NCBI GenBank assembly: GCA_963514005.1 | Contig: OY740781.1 | Coordinates: 177,692,001 to 177,756,000, forward strand | Reading direction: 5' to 3' | Source: Raja brachyura | Taxonomy: Eukaryota | Length of the DNA: 64,000 bases | Shown: positions 17,415-53,158 of the stretch, in pieces | Layout: each line of letters opens with the position of its first letter | How positions within the stretch are numbered: the first letter of the stretch is position 1 | Made by a program: the position numbers and the translations under genes | Notes under the pieces: model-generated | Seen by the model: only the letters and a program-made list of their open reading frames with translations | Databases searched by the model: none | Told to the model about the DNA's origin: nothing

Positions 17415-17621
17415 ATAAAGGATCTGCAAATGCTGGTTTATACCAAAGATAGACACAAAATGCTGGAGTAACTTAACAGGCCAGGCAGCATCTCTGGAGA
17501 ACATGGATAGGGACCCTTCTTCTGTAGTCTGAAGAAGGATACCAGCCCGAAATATCACCTATCCATTTTCTCCAGAGATGCTGCCTGGCCCGCTGAGTTA
17601 TTCCAGCATTTCTTGTCCATC
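17415..17621. mobile_element. Fold-back (inverted pair) Penelope pLTR insertion
   Basis: Minus-orientation copy with tail (17415-17522) abuts a plus copy (gtctgaagaagg...ccagcatttcttgtccatc). Confidence 0.8.
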
Positions 17622-19278: not shown

Positions 19279-20811
19279 ATGAGGCCAAAGTTGTGCCAAT
19301 GAAAGTCAAAGAAACCATTATGAGACTGAGAAACAAGAATAAAACTGTTAGGGACATCAGCCAAACCTTCGGCTAACCCAAAATCAACGGTTTGGACATC
19401 ATTAAGAAGAAAGAGAGCACTGGTGAGCTTACTAATCGCAAAGCGACTGGCATGCCAAGGAAGACCTCCACAGCTGATGACAGAATTCTCTCTTTAACAA
19501 AGAAAAATCCTCCAGCACCTGTCCGACAGATAGGGTTGCCAACTGTCCCGTATTAGCCGGGACATCCCGTATTTTGGGCTAAATTGGTTTGACCCATACG
19601 GAACCGCCCTTGTCCTGTGTTTCACTGCTACTGGGTCGAGGGGACTGTTGGGTCGGAGCGCCGCATCCGGCCCCGCCTCACCCGTCCCGACGTAGCCCAT
19701 GAAGGGCAGCAGCAGCGCCTCACCAGCGGCCCCATCAGTCGGCAGCACAGTCAGCTGTCCAACCTTCGGACCTTCGCTTACCGCTGACACCATCACCCCT
19801 CCTTCTCATGGCCGGTCATCGGTTCATGAGTTGAATTGGGGGCCGGACTTTGCGTCTTCAGGCCAAAAGTCTTCAGCTGGCCCACCGGCTGGGCTTTGAG
19901 TGCAGTCCAGCACCCGGGCGAACTCATCATTCACCCAGCCACCGCCGAGTCGGTCAACAAATTGCTGTCGGGAATTTGTCCTGTATTTTGATCTTTTGTC
20001 CCTTTTTTGGGAGTGAGAAAGTTGGCAACCTTACCGACAGATTCGAAACATTCTTCAGGAGTCAGGTGTGGTTTTGTCAATGATCAATGTCCACAGAAGA
20101 CTTCATGAACATAAATACAGAGGCTACACTGCAAGATGCAAACCACTGGTTAGCTGCAAAAATAGGAATGTCAGGTTACACTTTGCCAAGAAGAGCGACC
20201 ACAGTTCTGGAAAAAGGTCTTGTGGACAGATGAGACGAAGATTAACTTATATCAGAGTGATGGCAAAAGCAAAGTATGGAGGAGAGAAGGAACTGCCCAA
20301 GATCTAAAGCATACCACCTCATCTGTGAAACACAGTGGTGGGGGTGTTATGGCCTGGGCATGTATGGCTGCTGAAGGTACTGGCTCACTTATCTTCATTG
20401 ATGATACTACTGCTGATGGTAGTAGCATAATCAATTCTGAAGTGTATAGACACATCCTATCTGCTCAAGTTCAAACAAATGCCTCAAAACTCATTTGCTG
20501 GTGGTTCATTCTACAGCAAGCCAATGATCCCAAACATACTGCTAAAACAACAAGAGTTTTTCAAAGCTAAAAAATGGTAAATTCTTGAGTGACCAAGTCA
20601 ATAACCCAATCAAAACCTAATTGAGCATGCCTTTTATATGCTGAAGAGAAAACTGAAGGGGACTAGCGCCCAAAACAAGCATAAGCTAAAGAAGGCAGCA
20701 ATACAGGCCTGGCAGAGCATCACTAGAGAAGACATCCAGCAACTGGTGATGTCCATGAATCATAGACTTCAAGCAGTCATTGCATGCAAAGGATATGCAA
20801 CAAAATACTAA
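19279..20811 (+). pseudogene. Tc1 DD34E transposase pseudogene
   Basis: WTDETKINLYQSDG, VKHSGGGVMAWAC, QQANDPKH (the catalytic D of QQDND reads A) and terminal GYATKY*. Frameshifts, stops and the hAT insertion disrupt it. Confidence 0.92.
19531..20033. mobile_element. Non-autonomous hAT element nested in the Tc1
   Basis: TIRs tagggttgccaac / gttggcaacctta. Exact 8-bp TSD ccgacaga at 19523-19530 and 20034-20041. Subterminal tgtccc(g)tatt repeats. Confidence 0.93.
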
Positions 20812-23350: not shown

Positions 23351-26300
23351 TTTTTTTTTTTTTTTTTTTGTAATATTTTTTTATTTGAAGTAAACCGTTT
23401 ACAATGTAAAGCTTACTTTATAAACTAACACCTTAATTCAATATTACTACAAATAACATATCAATACTTAATATCTTCTATTTTTTGGAAATAAAGAAAA
23501 AGATATATAAAAGAGAAAAGAAAAAAGAGTAAATAAAAAGGAATAAAAAATTCTTCCCACATACTTCAATCGTAAATAAAAAGAAAATAAAAAGGGAAAA
23601 TTTGAAAAACAAAAATATTACATATATATAAACAAAAACTAAAGTCATTATACGAAATACTATTTCATTCAGAAATATCTCTAATAAATGCACAATAATA
23701 TCAATTATAAGTAAGTTATTCGCATCGGATCCGTAGGGTGTCCGTCGAGCCGTGATTCCAAGAATAGCTACTTTTCTAAATACTGTATATATGGAGACCA
23801 TATCGATTCAAAAGAATTATACCTGTCCAAAAGGACAAATCTAATTCTTTCCAAATTCAACGTCTCCAACATCTCTACTTTCCACATTTTAATTGTTGGA
23901 GATAATGTTCCCTTCCAAAATTTAAGTATCATTTTTTTCCCTATTATTAAACAGTAATCAAAAAAATTTCTTTGATTAACCGTGAGTACCAAATTTGGCT
24001 CCGGGATTCCGAATATTATTAATTTTGGGTCTGGGTCGAGTTCAACCTTAAGAACTTCCGAAATAACTTTAAAAATTTCAATCCAATAATAATTCAACCG
24101 TGGACACGTTACCAAACTATGTATTAAATTTGCTTCAAGATTCTTACATTTATCACAAATAGAGGAGAGACTAGGAAAAATACTTTTTAATTTGGTTTTC
24201 GAGTAGTGTAATCTATATATAACTTTAAATTGTATCAGTGTATGTCTGGCATTCAAAGAACACCAATGTATTCTTTGTAAGCATTCTTCCCAAGTTTCTT
24301 TTGTTATAGGTAATCCGATTTCATTTTCCCATGCTTGACGATATGTTTCAGTTGTTGGGTTCTCTTTATCTAAAATAATATTGTATATATAAGCTATAAG
24401 CTTATCCGTATTTGGATGTAAATTAAACAGCTCATCTAATAAGCCTGGTTCTTTTTTTTTATAGTCTTGTGTGTTACATTTAATAAAATCTCTAATTTGT
24501 AAATACCTAAAATGGTGTTGTGAAGGTAATCCAAAAATATCTTGTAACTCTTCAAATAATAAAAATTTTCCATTTCTATAAAGGTGTCCTATCCTTTTAA
24601 TTCCTAAATCCTCCCACAGTCTAAACCCCGCATCTAAGATTGAGGGTTTAAACAGTGGGTTATTCCTAATTGGTAACCTAAAAGAAAGATTATCCAGATA
24701 TAGGGTCTTAACTATCTGTTTCCAAATACGCCTATTATTATGAATTATAGGGTTGTCCCTATAAGTCTTTTTTTGTACTTCCTTTGGTGCGAAAATAATC
24801 GACTCTATATTGAAAGGTAAACAGTCTTCCTTTTCCATTTTTAACCACATTGGTTCAACATCCATATTTACCCACCAAAAATTCATATTCTTAATCTGGA
24901 CTGCCCAAAAGTAATATAGAAAATTTGGAAGTGCCAGCCCTCCATTTATCTTAGACTTACATAAGTGTTTTTTACTTATTCTATGACTTTTGTAATCCCA
25001 GACAAAATTATTAACTATAGTATCAATTTTTAAAAAAAAACTTTTTGGGAGAAAAAAAGGAATTGCCTGAAATAAATATAACAATTGTGGTAAAAAAATC
25101 ATCTTTATAGCATTAATCCTACCGATCATAGATATAGGGAGTGTTTTCCAATACGAAATGTTTTTTTTAAGTTTCTCTAATAATTGATAATAATTAGCTT
25201 TAATTAATAATTTATAGGATTTAGACACATTGATTCCTAAATATTTAAATTTATCTGTAACTATTTTTAGTGGGTATTTTTGTAATATATTTACATTTAT
25301 ACCAGTTATAGGCATAATATCACTTTTATTCCAATTAATCCTATATCCTGAAAATACGCTAAATTCATTTATAACATTAAATAACTTGGGAATACTACAT
25401 TCCGGCTTAGTAATATAAATCAGAATATCATCTGCATATAAAGATATCTTATTATTTGTTGTGTCAGTATTATACCCATATATTTCGGGTTCTGATCTGA
25501 TTCTTTCGGCCAGAGGTTCTATCACCAAAGCAAATAATAAAGGGGATAACGGACATCCCTGTCTGCATCCCCTAAAAAGTCTAAATTTAGGTGATAGTAT
25601 TTGATTCGTTAAAATTCTTGCTGTAGGGTTAGAATATAATATTCTTACCCATTTACAAAATCCATCCCCCAGTTGATACTTTTCCATTATATTAAATAAA
25701 TATGACCATTCCACCTGGTCGAATGCTTTTTCAGCATCCAACGATATAACTGCTAATTCAATATCTCTCCTTCTTCTCGAGTATATAATGTTAAACAAGC
25801 GTCTAAGATTATGTGATGAATAACGTTTTGGAATAAAACCTGTTTGATCATAATGTATTATTTTGGAAATCACTAAGCTTAGCCTCCGAGACAGTACTTT
25901 AGTTAATATTTTTTGATCAGTATTTAAAAGGGCAATCGCTCGATATGATCCAGGATCTTCCAGATCCTTATCTAATTTAGGAATTAATGTAATTGTAGAT
26001 TCATTTAAAGACTCTGGTAACTTTCCTAACTCATAGGTGTGTCTATACACTGTTTGTAATCTTGATGAAAGTAGATCATGAAATTTTTAATAAAATTCTG
26101 CACTCAGGCCATCGGGGCCCGCTGTTTTACCATTTTTTAACGATCCAATTGATTCTTCGATATCTATTACCGATATTTCAGCATTTAATAATTGCCTACT
26201 CTCAAAATCTAGCTTATTAAAATGACATTTTTCTAAAAATGTTTCCATTTCATCTGTTTGCCCTGTTAATTTAGATGAATAAAGATTTTGATAATATTGT

Positions 26301-28143
26301 AAAAATGTGTCATTAATGTCTTTTGGTATAGTCAACGTATTTCCCTGTACCGATCTAATACTATGTATAGTTTTTTCATCGTCTAATCTTCTGAGTTGTC
26401 GTGCTAATAATTTTTGAGGTTTATCACCAAATTCAAAATGAACTTGTTTAGTTTGTTGATATAGTTTTATCACTTGATCAGAGTAAATTTTATTTAATCT
26501 ATATTTTAATATAGCAATTTTATTACTCAACTCTTTAGAAGGATGTATTATATTTTCACTATCTAATTGTTTTATCTCTTTTTCTAACTTTTGCTCCATT
26601 TTTCGATTTACTTTGTTAAAATGAGCTTGTGCTGATATTATTGCACCGCGCATAAATGCTTTAAATGTATCCCATAATAATAATGGGGAAGTCTCAGATT
26701 TATCGTTAGTTTCAAAAAATAATTTAATCTGTTTCTCCACATAGTTACAGCAATCTTTATCCTTTAATATCTGTGTGTTGAATCTCCAAATATTAGTTTT
26801 ATTAACTATATCTTTTAATTTTATCTTAAATGTTAATGGAGCATGATCTGAGATAATAATATTATGATACTTTGCATCATACGTAAAGGGGAGTAATTTT
26901 GAGTCGACTAAGAAATAATCTATCCTCGAGTAGGTTCCGAATACCGGCGAGAAAAATGAATATTCCCGTCCGGTTGGATTATCCAATCTCCAAATATCTT
27001 TAACATTCGATGTCTTAATAAAAGAATTTATAAGCTTACTTGATTTAGAAAGAGCCTTACTTTTTGTAGAAGATCTGTCCAAATAATTATCTAAAGTACA
27101 GTTTAAATCACCTCCAATTATTAAATTATATTGGGTGGATATAGGAATACTATTAAATATTTTCTTAAAAAATAGTGGATTATCAAAATTAGGTGCGTAT
27201 ATATTCATAAGAATTACTTTTTTTAAATGTAATTCCCCTGTAATTATTAAATATCTACCCTCCTTATCCTCTATTATCGAATTAAGTTTAAAAGGTATAC
27301 CTTTACGAATAATTATTGCAACCCCTCTAGATTTGTGTATAAACGAAGAATGATATACTTTTGAAATCCATTTAGCTGTTAATCTATATTGAGCATCTTT
27401 TTTAAGATGTGTTTCTTGAAGAAACGTAACTCCAGATTTCAATCTATTCAGCTGAGCTAATACCTTTCCCCTTTTAATTGGTTCATTGATTCCTTTAACA
27501 TTCCAACTACAGAAGGTGATTCCATCACCCCCATTCCTTACATTCATATCTTGCATTTTATTGTTAGGGTGGCTTTTTTTGGAGTAGCCTTCTTGGCTCC
27601 TCCAGCCCGACATTACACCCCAACTTCAATCCGATGCGAATTTCCAATTCCATTAAACCATATCCATTTAATCTGATTATATAAAATAGATAGAAGTCAT
27701 GATTATATAATATATAATATAAAATCAAGTATGTGTTATACAAAAAATAATAACGAGTGTAAATATAAAAAAAGTAAAGGGTGATAAAAGGTGATCAGAA
27801 AAAAAAGAGACTACACTTTTATAGTGTGTAGTGTGCACGGGTGAAAGCCACACTAACATGGCTACTAATCTAGCGACTTCCGTTTTCTAAAAAAAAAAGA
27901 TGTTAAATATTCCAGCTCTTATTTGGAATACTGTATATATTGGGGTGGGGGTGCTAACTTTATATTCTTAATAACTTTTTCTATTATTCATATTAATAGT
28001 TTTTAGTTGTTAATTTCAACTATAATTAGTATCATAATTAGTAATACTATATAAGTGGAGTAAGGGAAATCAAACTAATTAGTGATTAGCAATTAATAAT
28101 TACAAATTAGTATTTATTAATTAATTAGTAAGCAATATAATAC
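23351..28143 (-). mobile_element. 5'-truncated L1-clade LINE (4.8 kb), young
   Basis: Poly(A) tail (T-run about 23351-23369) with AATAAA just upstream. Exact 16-bp TSD tacgggacaaagttct at 23335-23350 and 28144-28159. Contains ORF2 and about 530 bp of AT-rich upstream spacer; no ORF1. Confidence 0.96.
23768..27613 (-). pseudogene. L1 ORF2 (APE endonuclease + reverse transcriptase + CCHC), one in-frame stop
   Basis: EN motifs SWNVKG, LQETH, GGDLN, SRIDYF, SDH; RT motifs LDAEKAFD, RQGCPLSP, YADD; C-terminal CDKC-x8-H-x4-C. The listed ORFs 26087-27613 and 23768-26050 share one frame and are separated only by TAA at 26089-26087. Confidence 0.95.
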
Positions 28144-33197: not shown

Positions 33198-33589
33198 AGG
33201 GCCTGTCCCATTGCCCCGAGTTATTCACAAATTCTCCTGAAAAATTTTCACAAATTCTCCCGAGTTTTCAAACTCGCAGAATGTTTGTAACGAGTCCGTG
33301 GGAGGCTGTAGGAGTTCGTGGATATATCATAGCGGCTCGTTATGACAGCCGTAGGTACTCGAGTCTATTTTCTTACTCGTGGACATTTTTCATCATGCTG
33401 AAAAAACGTCCCGACTTACATGATGCCCCGAGTACCTACGGCTGGAATAACGAGCCGCTACGATATATCCACGGACTCCTACGGCCTCCTACGGACTCGT
33501 TACAAACTTTCTGCGAGTTTGAAAACTCGGGAGAATTCATGAATAACTCAGAAGAATTTATGAATAACTCGGGAAAGTGGGACAGGCCT
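33198..33589. mobile_element. PIF/Harbinger-type MITE
   Basis: TAA|agggcctgtccca...tgggacaggcct|TAA, long subterminal inverted repeats and a central palindrome. The ORF 33131-33592 is an artefact of this element. Confidence 0.88.
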
Positions 33590-35509: not shown

Positions 35510-36265
35510 CCGTCCCCCCAATGCATTATTGCACCACTCACGCATAGTCCCCAACTGCACAGGCACATTTCATTTCCCCTCATCCCCCAGTACACCCTCC
35601 CCCTCCTTTTCACCCTCCCTCCTTTCCACTCTCCTCCTCCCCTCCCCAATGTCTCCTTCACCTCTCCCTCCCTCTCCTTTCCCTTACTCTCAGTCACTCC
35701 CTCCCTCCCTCCATAATTCCTCTCCCTTCCCTCTACCCCCCCACACCTCACTTCCCCCTATCCAACCACTATCCCTCTTGACCTCCCCCACTCCCCTCCT
35801 ATCCCTCTATTCCCCCTCTTTCCCCACTCTCCTCACCTCCTCCTCTCCCTCCCTACCTCTTCCTCTCCCCCAATTCCCCCCATTCTCCCTCCTCACCTCC
35901 CCAGGATCTTTCCCCTCTCCTCCTCCCCTCCCCCAATCCTTCCCTCACCTCTCCCTCCCTCTCCTTTCCCCTACTCTCAGTCAGTCACTCCCTCCCTCCC
36001 TCCCTCCATCCATAAAAAGCAGCATATGCAGTTCCTTCCTCCACAGGTCATTCATTGTCATTAGCTGTGGACCAGTTTGCATCGTGTGTGTCGATAACTT
36101 TTACAATATACCACCGATCGGAACGGAACTTGTTGCACTCGCAGCACAGGTGAACGGTCAGTATCCTGGCGAAATATCGTAGTGCTACAGCGTACCGTTT
36201 TTGCGCAAATAGAAAAACCCCGCACACCGGACGAGCACAAGATCAGATTTTTAGTTATGTATACA
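35510..36265 (-). mobile_element. Non-autonomous Helitron, 3'-truncated copy
   Basis: Reverse-complement match to both the 5' terminal ~175 bp and the purine-rich 3' body of the element at 51677-53158, but without its central ~640-bp cargo. Confidence 0.8.
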
Positions 36266-36599
36266 TCCATATCACAGCAGTTAGAAAAAATCAAGTAAAC
36301 ATAATTTTGTGAAAGGGAAATCATGTTTGAGGTATTTACTGGAGTTCCTTGAAAAAGTGACATGAGCTGTGGATAAAAGAGAACAAGTAGCTGGAATAAT
36401 CTCAGATATCCGGAAGGCATTTCATAGGGTGATGTGTCAGAAGTTATTTTTAAACATAAATACTCATGGTGTAGCAGGTAACACACTGGCCAAGACAGAA
36501 GATTGGCCGACTAACAGAAAACAGAATGAGAATAAATGGATCTTTTTGGCAAGATGTAACAAGTGATGTGCCATGGCGATTGATGTTGGGGCCTTGACA

Positions 36600-37202
36600 T
36601 TGGGGTGGGGTGGGTTGAGTTCGTGTGGGGGGAAGGAGGAGGAACGAGGGAGGGGTAAAGGGGGGATGTAGGGGGGACGGGGTGTGTGGGGAGGGATGTG
36701 TGGGGAGGAGAGGGAAGGGGGAGGGAGCAGGGGGGAAGGGGTGTGTGTGGGGGGGGAAGGACTCCACTCAGCGGCCACCGACCGCGGCAACACACATCAC
36801 CCCCCGGCTCCACTCAATGGTTTCCCTGACTCCACTCAGCGGCTTCCCCGATTCCACTCTTGCCGACTCAATCAACACGGATTGTGGACTCAATCAGCAC
36901 GGCTTGTGGACTCAGTCCCGCCTCCGGGGATTTATTCTCCTCGCCCCGGTAATTGACAGCAGGTGCCAGAAGGGTGATTGACAGGCGAGAAGACCAATCT
37001 GCTGATCTCACAATTGTTTAAACCTTCATAACTTTTGTAATATTCCACCGATCGGAACAAAACTTGGTGCGCATGGAGCAGAGGAGAACAGTGAGTAAGG
37101 TGTCGAAAAAAATCCTAGCGATGTACGGTACCGTTATTGCACAAATTTAAAAGAAATCCAAACCAGAAGAGGACAAGATGAGAGTTTTAGTAATATTATA
37201 GA
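36600..37202 (-). mobile_element. Non-autonomous Helitron, related subfamily, 5' part with internal ~21-bp minisatellite
   Basis: 5' end A|TCTATAATATTACTAAAACTC...; shares ccaccgatcggaac and gaagaccaatctg with the other copies; gactccactcagcggc-type repeats at about 36759-36915. Confidence 0.72.
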
Positions 37203-37940
37203 TAGATGTAGATAGATGTTTTAAATTCAGGGAACTGGGTCTCTGCTTGTCTTAATGCAAATGGATACTGGACTTCCTCATCAGCAGATCTCAATCAATA
37301 CGAATTAGTAACATGTCCTTCTCAGTGACTATCGCCAAAAGGCTACCTCAAGGCTACATGCTCAGTGCCCTGCTTTACTTTCTCTATATCATGACAGTTC
37401 AATGAGACACAGCTCGAACACCATCTTTGAATTTACCGATGATGCCACTGATGTTGGACGAATGATGGGTAATGACTAGTCAGAGGCCAAGAAAGAGTTT
37501 GATAATCAGGTTGAGTGGGGACAGAACTACAATCTTGCTTTCAATATTAGCAGGACAAGGAGCTGATTATTTATTTCAGGATTGGAAAGCGAGAATCTTT
37601 GCACCTGCCTTCGGCAGCGAGATTGCAGTGGAGAGAATCAACAGTTTCAGGTTCCTGCGCATATGCATCTCTGATAATCTGTCCTAGGCCCATATCATTG
37701 ATGCAGTTACAAAGAAAGCTCACCAATGCCTCTACTTCCTTAGTAGTAAGAGGAGTTGTCATTGAATACACTTGCAAACTTCTGCAGGTATATGGTGTAG
37801 ACATATTGATTAATAGCATCATGGCTTGGTTCGGTAATCCAAATGCTAAAGAACACAGGAGGCGGCAATACGTGGTGGACATTATTTAACCATCACAGGT
37901 ATTGACCTCCTAACCAATAATAGGATTTGCAGGAAGCATT

Positions 37941-38530
37941 GTCGATAATTTTTACAATATACCACCGATCGGAACGGAACTTGTTGCACTCGCAGCACAG
38001 GTGAACGGCGAGTATCCTGGCGAAAAATCGTAGCGTACCGTTTTTGCGCAAATAGAAAAACCCCTCAAACCGGAAGAGCACAAGATCAGTGTTTTAGTTA
38101 TGTATACATCCATATCACAGCAGTTAGAAAAAATCAAGTAAACATAATTTTGTGAAAGGGAAATCATGTTTGAGTTATTTACTGGAGTTCCTTGAAAAAG
38201 TGACATGAGCTGTGGATAAAAGACAACAAGTAGCTGGAATAATATAAATGGGAAAATAATTGGTCGGCATGGACTGGAAGGGCCGAGAAGGCCTGTTTCC
38301 GTGCTGTAATTGTTATATGGTTAATAATCTTAGATATCCGGAAGGCATTTCACAGGGTGATGTGTCAGAAGTTATTTTTAAACATAACTACTCATGGTGT
38401 AGCAGGTAACACGCTGGCCAAGACAGAAGATTGGCTGACTAACAGAAAACAGAATGAGAATAAATGGATCTTTTTGGCAAGATGTAACAAGTGATGTGCC
38501 ATGACGATTGATGTTGGGACCTTGACATTT
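37941..38530. repeat. Local direct duplication of about 36090-36600 (Helitron 5' end plus flanking CR1 RT fragment)
   Basis: Near-identical sequence from gtcgataa.ttttacaatataccaccgatcgg to gatgttggg.ccttgacatt in both places. This copy has an extra insertion at 38244-38322. Confidence 0.92.
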
Positions 38531-45397: not shown

Positions 45398-45641
45398 GTT
45401 AAAGAAGGAACTGCAGATGCTGGAGAATCGAGGGTTACACAAAAAGCTGGAGAAACTCAGCGGGTGCAGCAGCATCTAAGGGGCGAAGGAGATGGGCGAC
45501 GTTTCGGGTCGAGACCCTTCTTCAGACGGGTCTCTTTCAGACCCGTCTGAAGAAGGGTCTCGACCCGAAACGTCACCTATCTCCTTCGCCCCTTAGATGC
45601 TGCTGCACCCGCTGAGTTTCTCCAGCTTTTTGTGTAACCCT
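45398..45641. mobile_element. Palindromic Penelope pLTR insertion with 15-16-bp TSD
   Basis: 103-bp arms at 45431-45533 and 45539-45641 (2 mismatches, 5-nt loop), with a 33-nt extra tail on the left only. TSD (t)ccaaaagaaccatgt at 45382-45397 and 45641-45656. Confidence 0.92.
45547..45574 (+). ncRNA. Minimal hammerhead-ribozyme-like core (mirror copy on the minus strand at 45498-45525)
   Basis: CTGAAGA-A-GGGTC tc GACCC-GAAA-CGTC: CUGANGA box, stem II, GAAA box, palindromic ACGT stem III and a GUC triplet. Minimal hammerheads are an established feature of Penelope-like pLTRs. Stem I is only about 2 bp here, so activity is uncertain. Confidence 0.6.
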
Positions 45642-46111
45642 CCAAAAGAACCATGTTTTGTGAGATAACAGAGAAATGTCTTGGATACCATTACAGAGTC
45701 TGTTCAGGATGTTCACAATGATCATGGATTTTTTTTATAACACTTCTGGTGAAACATAAGAAACCTTCCTTATAAATCCACTTCTGCTTAAAATTCAAAG
45801 ACAAATCTTGATTGCCCTGGCCATGGCATCATTTGTCATTGCTTTGATGCTTTTGAGGGGAAGACAAATGCATATTTGTTTTTTAAACTTTTTAAATTTG
45901 ACAAATGTGGACTCTCCAACATGTAACATTGATTGGGAAACTGCAAAGGCACAACTTCTGCGGGTAGAATTTTGAGGCTACAATATATAATGACTCACAA
46001 ATTAGCTGTTGAAGCACTAGAATGAACATTGTATGATGTGAGACACACTAATCCATTAATGTATTATTATAATGTATTATTATAAGTCGGTGATTTTCAT
46101 CAGTAAATTTC

Positions 46112-51676: not shown

Positions 51677-53158
51677 TCCATACATGACTAATACTTTGAT
51701 CTTGTGCTCTTCCGGTTTGCGGGATTTTTCTATTTGTGCAAAAGCAGTAAGCAATAGCGCTACGATTTTTTGCCAGGTTACTCACCGTTCTCCTGTGCTA
51801 CGAGTGCAACAAGTTTCGTTCTCATCGGTGGTATATTGTAAAATTTATCGAGGTTTAAAAATCTTTTAAAACGCGCGTGCGCAGATTCCTTCAGTCAGCG
51901 CCACACAGATTGGTGTCTTCCCCTGTCAGTCAATGCCACGGCCGGGATGGTGACGCCCCTTTCTGCCCCACCGGCGGAGGCCTGTCCTGCCTCACTCACA
52001 AACTCCTCTCTCCCCTCCTCACAGTAACTTGTCTATCGTCCCCCCCCACTACCGGCGGCGGCCATGGGGGAGTAGACTTGAAGGCCCTGGTCCCGTCTCT
52101 CCCTCATCCCCTCTCCCCGCCCACCCTCTGCGACAATGGTGGCCCCGTCGAACCGCCCCCCCCGGGTCCGTCTCCTCGGCCGCCACCGCCGTCATGGTAA
52201 CTCACCTTCATGGCCTTCTCGGAGATCTTCTCCACCTGCACATCAAAACTCGTGGTACCCACCGTGACGAACACCGACTCCACCGCCCCCACCCCCCCTC
52301 GAGGTCCGGCGGCGGCGGCAGCGAGCAGGTGGGCAGGGCAGGGCAGAGTGGGGACGGGCCGAGCCCAGCAGCAGGCAGTCGAACAGGACGGGGACGGGCC
52401 GAGCGGCGGCTGAGCCGGAGTGGGCTGAGGGAGGGAGGGAGAGTCTGGTTGCAGGGTGGCCGAGCAGTTTGCGCGGAGTTTGAGTAACTCTCACACACAT
52501 GATACAAACTGGTCCAATCGTCAAGTCAACGGGATCTAAACCATAGCTAACAATGAATTACCTGTGGAAAAAGGAACTGCACTTGCTGCTTTTTATGGAT
52601 GGAGGAGGGAGGGAGGGAGGGAGGGAGAGGAGAGGGAGGAATTTGGGAAGAGAGTGGAAAGATCCTGGGGAGGTGAGGAGGGAGAGTGGGGGGATTGAGG
52701 GAAAGGAAGGGGTAGGGAGGGAGAGGGGAAAGTGGGGGTTGAGGAGAGTGGGAGAGGAGAGCGAATAGAGGGAGAGGAGGGGGGTGTGGGGGGGGATAGG
52801 GGGAGGTGAGGAGTGGGAGATAGAGGGATAGGAGGGGGTGGGGCGAGGAGTTATGGAGGGAGGGAGTGACTGAGGGTAAGGGAAAGGGGAGGGAGAGGTG
52901 AGTGAGGGATTGGGGGGGAGGAGGAGAGGGGAAAGAAGAGGGAGGGTGAAGTGGAGGGGGAAGGAGTGCTGGGGATGAGGGGAAATGAGCTGCGCCTGCA
53001 CAGTTGGGGGCTATGCGTGAGTGGTGGAATATTGTGCTGGGTGGACGGGTTGAATTGGGGGAACGGGTGAGTGGTAGAATATTGCATTGGGGAACGGGTT
53101 GCGTTGGGGGACCAGGCCTCCCGTGTAACAGGGACCCAACGGGTCCCACTTAGTCTAG
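51677..53158 (+). mobile_element. Complete non-autonomous Helitron with captured cargo
   Basis: A|TC 5' end, 3' hairpin GGGACCC-aac-GGGTCCC (53131-53147) followed by CTAG|T, no TSD. Termini shared with the copies at 35510-36265, 36600-37202 and 37941-38107. Confidence 0.88.
52206..52283 (-). pseudogene. ALG13: Captured ALG13-like first exon inside the Helitron
   Basis: GTG GAG TCG GTG TTC GTC ACG GTG GGT ACC ACG AGT TTT GAT ... GCC ATG AAG|gtgagt = VESVFVTVGTTSFDVQVEKISEKAMK. VFVTVGTTSFD is the recalled N-terminal signature of ALG13 (MKCVFVTVGTTSFDDL). The donor falls about where I recall ALG13 exon 1 ending. Confidence 0.8.

Follow-up and report, generated by a model that had tools for sequence, protein, structure and literature searches.

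The element at positions 51677–53158 of the window (the whole 64,000-nucleotide stretch of Raja brachyura DNA analysed here) is very probably a non-autonomous skate Helitron that carries the start of the host gene ALG13, now found at hundreds of sites. Its spread was likely a single old burst with RepHel acting in trans, and the copies have since decayed without sign of selection. Alignment to the host gene confirms that the window copy contains ~530 bp of the ALG13 5′ end on the minus strand (~52061–52592), comprising ~310 bp of upstream DNA, exon 1, its donor, and ~140 bp of intron 1. The original prediction that the ALG13 5′ region was captured as DNA by a cartilaginous-fish Helitron is borne out: the source lies elsewhere, intron and upstream DNA are included, and hundreds of dispersed copies exist. 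The parts of the element and its relatives within the window are listed in Table 1.

Table 1. Parts of the ALG13-carrying Helitron (family A) and related insertions in the window
Feature	Position in window	Strand	Remarks
Whole non-autonomous Helitron, ALG13-carrying family A	51677..53158	+	Inserted between A and T; ends match dispersed copies
5′ Helitron backbone	51677..51973	+	Common to families B (positions 1–297, 89%) and C (1–256, 95%)
~87 bp GC-rich piece	51974..52060	.	No match in 50 kb around host ALG13
ALG13 intron 1 start, donor GTGAGT at 52205–52200	52061..52205	-	Aligns to G000:C13 ~8803132–8803265
ALG13 coding exon 1 copy	52206..52283	-	tblastn to host exon and Leucoraja ALG13; per-copy table
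ALG13 5′ UTR and upstream (putative promoter) DNA	52284..52592	-	Aligns to G000:C13 8802704–8803050
Purine-rich low-complexity spacer	52593..52946	+	Partly common to family C
3′ Helitron backbone with hairpin 53131–53147 and terminal CTAG	52947..53158	+	~92% with families B and C
Sister copy, internal deletion derivative of family A	35510..36263	-	Family positions 175–832 lost, 833–932 kept
5′ fragment of sister insertion	37942..38106	-	Duplicated together with flank

The capture claim implied an ALG13 source at another locus, and the true multi-exon gene was found on G000:C13, a contig other than that of the window. A Pfam search of the genome with PF04101 gave two exon-sized matches on this contig, which holds exons 1–4 and later exons; residues 1 to 350 of Leucoraja ALG13 align in nine exon-sized pieces within the 50 kb around the locus, and host exon 2 shares 93% identity with Leucoraja ALG13. 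The captured segment matches the true locus with E 3e-67, a value not attributable to chance, and the element aligns to C13 ~8802704–8803265 over upstream DNA, exon 1, donor, and the start of intron 1. The captured piece is collinear with this single host locus, and the inclusion of intron and upstream DNA makes this a capture at the DNA level. Nor does the window hold further ALG13 exons near the first, as a true locus would; with Leucoraja ALG13 as query, none beyond exon 1 was found in the 64 kb. Transfer from host to element is indicated by the upstream border of the segment (at 52592), where the captured DNA includes just the final ~25 bp of an unrelated dispersed repeat, the rest of which is found, further upstream, at the host gene alone; the lack of the ALG13 segment in the sibling families B and C was counted in favour of the same direction.

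The predicted 78-nt minus-strand exon with its GTGAGT in CpG-rich DNA is present in the window copy at 52283–52206, where it reads VESVFVTVGTTSFDVQVEKISEKAMK and is followed by GTGAGT; its start codon is GTG, and one codon has been deleted. Between 51900 and 52500, the GC content is 0.63–0.70 and the CpG observed/expected ratio is 0.5–1.0, compared with 0.40 and 0.42 for the whole window. Searches of Pfam and PDB with the 26-residue peptide of the window copy, too short a query for this purpose, gave no match. The family A majority exon, with its ATG, 27 codons, and donor, equals the host exon at 77 of 81 bases; across upstream, exon, and intron sequence there are 53 mismatches to the host in 490 aligned bases. 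Residue 2 is E in the family majority, in Leucoraja, and in most elasmobranchs, and A in the ALG13 gene of this genome, so the capture is likely to be older than the E-to-A change. At the host locus, intron 1 contains a GC-rich minisatellite of ~1 kb (L048:3280–4272), before which the Helitron copy stops, and a perfect 3×45-bp repeat lies upstream of the ATG (L048:2887–3023), with fewer units in the Helitron copy.

The termini are those of a canonical Helitron (5′ TC and 3′ CTRR, without terminal inverted repeats). In the window copy, A (51676) is followed by TC at 51677, and a CTAG closing at 53158 is followed by T. The hairpin has a 7-bp stem and ends 11 nt short of the element end (−7.5 kcal/mol); its z of −1.82 is modest when taken alone, and it is kept in copies. 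All the end features named originally (TC after A, the hairpin, and CTAG before T) are therefore in place. When families A, B, and C are pooled, A precedes TC in 78 of 85 distinct 5′ flanks and T follows CTAG in 63 of 66 distinct 3′ flanks, and a target duplication of >3 bp is absent from all 23 two-ended copies of the families on this backbone. No empty pre-insertion site was found among the 15 joints listed (of which there are 874 more) in other organisms. The 5′ flanks end in TCTA in 32 of the 85 cases, often as (TCTA)n runs, and several copies directly adjoin the 3′ end of another Helitron.

The genome contains 96 matches to the Helitron Rep domain PF14214, and of nine RepHel loci that were compared, one is flanked by related ends on both sides, 5′ upstream and 3′ downstream. 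This full-length but decayed element of ~6.8 kb (G000:C13 ~50163903–50170735, L075:6903 to L076:3735) starts with TC after A, shares 69% identity with the first 197 bp of the 5′ backbone, contains broken Rep and PIF1 helicase frames, and closes with a related CTAG before T. It appears to be a decayed relative and is at most a candidate driver; mobilisation of the ALG13-carrying family by RepHel through a rolling-circle intermediate is putative.

The captured piece was amplified as part of the element, and the termini are common to the dispersed copies; the original prediction had looked to such copies for support. A search with the ALG13 segment gave 711 first-look candidates; the 40 of these that were scored were all matches and lie on many contigs. 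A 27-nt exon motif gave 203 matches at ≤1 mismatch (45 exact) and none for the reversed control. Among 19 copies that were picked by their 5′ end and span the motif, six pass the ≤1-mismatch filter and two are exact; scaling by these rates gives a rough estimate of 400–700 exon-bearing copies, with a wide error and a floor of at least 203. The majority sequence is 1535 bp long and the median K2P distance of the copies to it is 0.10. The tree of 105 rows is star-like (mean terminal branch 0.117, internal 0.009), with no supported long internal clade, and together with the K2P distance this points to one old burst. An older, host-like subfamily was considered and rejected, given that the host-state bases are scattered, lie mostly in CpG or repeat columns, and form no supported clade. 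L095, L103, and the sister copy (sibling family or deletion) were left out of the family A statistics, as was L088, a duplicate of L013; L107 and L110 were also left out of the tree and of the 126-copy CpG dyad count given below, which in addition excludes copies with <30 CpG dyads.

Contigs of four other organisms pile up on the element, exon included, at depths that do not represent copy numbers. In two of the four, X2 and X5, one contig each bridges the locus flank and the same 5′ junction, with 53 and 33 bases inside the element and flanks that are 3.5–4.6% different, whereas the contigs of X10 and X20 stop short of this junction. The insertion is thus older than the X2 and X5 splits.

The original prediction was right about the ALG13 capture and incomplete in that it missed sibling families carrying other captured gene starts. 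A 38-nt 5′ motif has 93 exact matches, the first 30 of which comprise eight of the ALG13 type, 13 of family B, two of family C, and seven of none, two of these seven being one locus. In all three families the insert lies between the same 5′ module of ~260–300 bp and 3′ module of ~210 bp. Family C (L143–L172; 1026 candidates) carries, in sense orientation, most of SAC3D1 exon 1, the donor, and the intron start, and its source is SAC3D1 on the minus strand at G000:C32 ~6963360–6964450 (L176). Its cargo includes a coding repeat that is found in Amblyraja and Rhinoraja and not in Pristis or Narcine, which places the SAC3D1 capture in the skate lineage. In the family C majority, an ATG has also arisen within GCCATGG, immediately behind a CCAAT-like box, and there is a second CpG-rich piece of ~160 bp without a match at SAC3D1. 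Family B (L113–L142 and L303–L332; 3080 candidates), the commonest in the 5′-end sample, carries a CpG-rich piece that looks like an exon: it contains a CCGGAAG motif and an open frame, and its end resembles a donor (GTGAGT). Its source gene was not found, all 30 fetched loci being Helitron copies, and protein searches with one reading frame gave no match. More captures on this backbone are likely. Further inserts occur on it at L189 and L197, ~250–450 bp from the element start, and at window 36975–37202 (minus strand).

With regard to mechanism, we propose that one master element would have taken up the ALG13 CpG island in antisense orientation, at an internal site ~300–380 bp from its 5′ end, most likely when gap repair or template switching took place in open chromatin of the germline. 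In the sibling families, SAC3D1 exon 1 and the third exon-like piece would likely have entered their own masters at this same internal position; RepHel transposase acting in trans may then have spread the copies, likely in one old burst, and the dispersed copies would subsequently have decayed. The internal junctions are scrambled, and the route of capture is not readable from them. We incline, with limited confidence, to internal capture by gap repair or template switching, because the three families share the insertion position and because the 50 kb surrounding ALG13, like three loci around SAC3D1 exon 1, contain no Helitron end. A possible but doubtful alternative is composite (end-bypass) transposition, in which transposition would have begun from a 3′-defective Helitron within ALG13 intron 1 and, passing exon 1 and the promoter, stopped only at the 3′ end of another Helitron further upstream, both parents having later been lost or never fixed. 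Such read-through capture was demonstrated by experiment for Helraiser in the available part of PMC4778049, and the composite route is documented for the bat HelibatN539 in the accessible text of PMC4224331, where the parents are missing in 26 bat cases too. However, no Helitron 5′ or 3′ end lies near either gene in these stretches, and each of the three families would need a similarly cut 5′ piece of ~260–300 bp joined to the same 3′ module. Since missing parents are the rule in bats, the absence of Helitron ends at the parent genes is weak evidence. According to the available part of PMC4778049, Helraiser inserts into CpG islands 6.9-fold more frequently, a preference that offers a reason for the gene-start bias under either route. 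With three families on one backbone, the capture route becomes testable.

The decay of the copies bears on their possible function. CpG transitions occur at 3.3–4.2 times the non-CpG rate in every segment, captured or backbone, and 35% of CpG dyads have decayed across 126 copies, with a minimum of 15%. There is mild overdispersion in this decay (p=0.003), with the window copy at 14/56, and a few copies could thus be less methylated. At non-CpG exon sites pN/pS is 0.81. The copies decay like methylated neutral DNA, and their resemblance to CpG islands is inherited and fading, given that CpG decay is equal in the captured and backbone parts and that conservation of the donor was not repeated in new copies. 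The notion that the copies are maintained as unmethylated CpG islands is rejected for the family by the CpG decay. It is very unlikely that the dispersed copies have been selected as promoter, first-exon, or splice-donor cassettes. In the first set of 42 copies, the donor did rank among the three non-CpG hexamer windows, out of 452, with the fewest changes, and bat NUBPL copies drive some transcripts (available part of PMC4778049), but in 88 independently picked copies (from which L220 and L241 were excluded as duplicates) the donor came 77th of 292 and had 26 changes where 35 were expected, and CpG decay is the same as in the backbone. Selection on the splice donor, striking in the smaller set, therefore failed in the new one, and the family-wide claim is contradicted. 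At the level of single copies, the ATG, an open frame, and GT persist in 22 of 42, some of which could thus be in use, and each intact copy would constitute a putative portable cassette of upstream DNA, exon, and donor.

The borders of the capture required correction. The captured segment had been set at ~51852–52493 from comparison with the sister copy; the capture is real, but its borders are those given above, because 51852–51973 is backbone common to the sibling families and 52493–52592 is ALG13-upstream DNA that the sister keeps. For the same reason, the sister does not represent a form lacking the captured segment, as had been proposed. Besides its internal loss, the sister is missing the 3′ terminus and has a changed 5′ TC. 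That it is an empty ancestral element, the 640-bp difference being the captured piece, is highly improbable: the two flanks are directly joined in the sister, but it retains ~100 bp of ALG13-upstream DNA, lacks 120 bp of backbone that the siblings share, and has a junction spanned neither by any of 38 top-scored matches outside the window nor by the in-window duplicate (best 40 of 4350 candidates), and other copies have different internal deletions. The empty-precursor reading is rejected in favour of a deletion derivative of family A. A local duplication (36089–36601 versus 37940–38529, 94–97%) takes in the sister's 5′ end and flank.

There is next to no chance that the window segment is a processed pseudogene, a segmental duplicate, or the true ALG13 locus, since the exon match alone speaks for this, whereas intron and upstream DNA are present, later exons are absent, and homology is confined within the Helitron ends in dispersed copies. 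A retrocopy, which would show spliced exons, is likewise rejected, as exon 1 runs into intron 1 and the window holds no exon 2.

High-copy capture of vertebrate gene starts by Helitrons has been described from vesper bats, in which, in the available literature, gene 5′ ends are over-represented and amplify best. In HelibatN3 of Myotis bats, the NUBPL promoter, 5′ UTR, exon 1, and intron start were amplified to about a thousand copies, and bat Helitrons captured the promoters of 15 genes (accessible text of PMC4224331). The anatomy of HelibatN3 is nearly the same as that of the skate element, which is an object of the same kind in another lineage, with another gene and another Helitron family. 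Promoter activity and exon trapping were demonstrated in the bat system, according to the parts of the bat reports at hand, whereas both are putative for the skate element. In HelibatN217.1 (TMBIM4), as described in those parts, the 5′ UTR, exon 1, and intron start were captured in reverse orientation to the Helitron, as here; a related 3′ end adjoins the bat parent gene, whereas none lies beside skate ALG13. The bat promoter captures there resemble the skate families in their bias to gene 5′ ends and the high copy number reached. The claim that such a capture had not been described thus holds for cartilaginous fish, for which no report was found, and fails for the phenomenon, which HelibatN3 had already exemplified. 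Neither ALG13 nor SAC3D1 occurs in four of the five supplementary files of PMC4224331. A search of the openly accessible literature gave, among the papers listed, no Helitron report with ALG13, SAC3D1, or cartilaginous-fish gene capture, and the family may already have an entry in a repeat library such as Repbase or Dfam. Helitrons of maize capture pieces of genes at the DNA level, typically many fragments at low copy number. The skate elements likewise capture at the DNA level, but with one gene start per family and hundreds to thousands of candidate copies.

The capture of gene starts, known from bats, is thus likely to have happened again in skates. That another, independent vertebrate lineage shows the same bias points to a general rule by which Helitrons pick up open CpG islands, and CpG-island cargo may help them to spread. 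A bolder and rather speculative reading, on which we would not rely, is that one skate backbone is a serial collector of CpG-island gene starts (ALG13, SAC3D1, and at least one more) at a fixed internal site, scattering thousands of promoter–exon–donor cassettes through skate genomes, some of them now first exons of skate genes. If true, the bat case would have been replayed independently, and skates would offer a second vertebrate system for testing whether promoter capture helps a Helitron to amplify. On a practical level, the hundreds of sequences resembling ALG13 and SAC3D1 exon 1 can be a source of error when skate genes are annotated, CpG islands are called, or primers are designed.

The window contains other repeats. 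A frame at 20166–20570 without a Pfam match resembles, by eye, a fragment of a Tc1-type transposase. Palindromic repeats, either MITE-like or tail-to-tail repeat ends, lie at 33200–33588, 45430–45642, and 17448–17621. A LINE at 23768–27625 (minus strand), probably young, has long open frames for an endonuclease (512 aa) and a reverse transcriptase (772 aa), with one stop between them.
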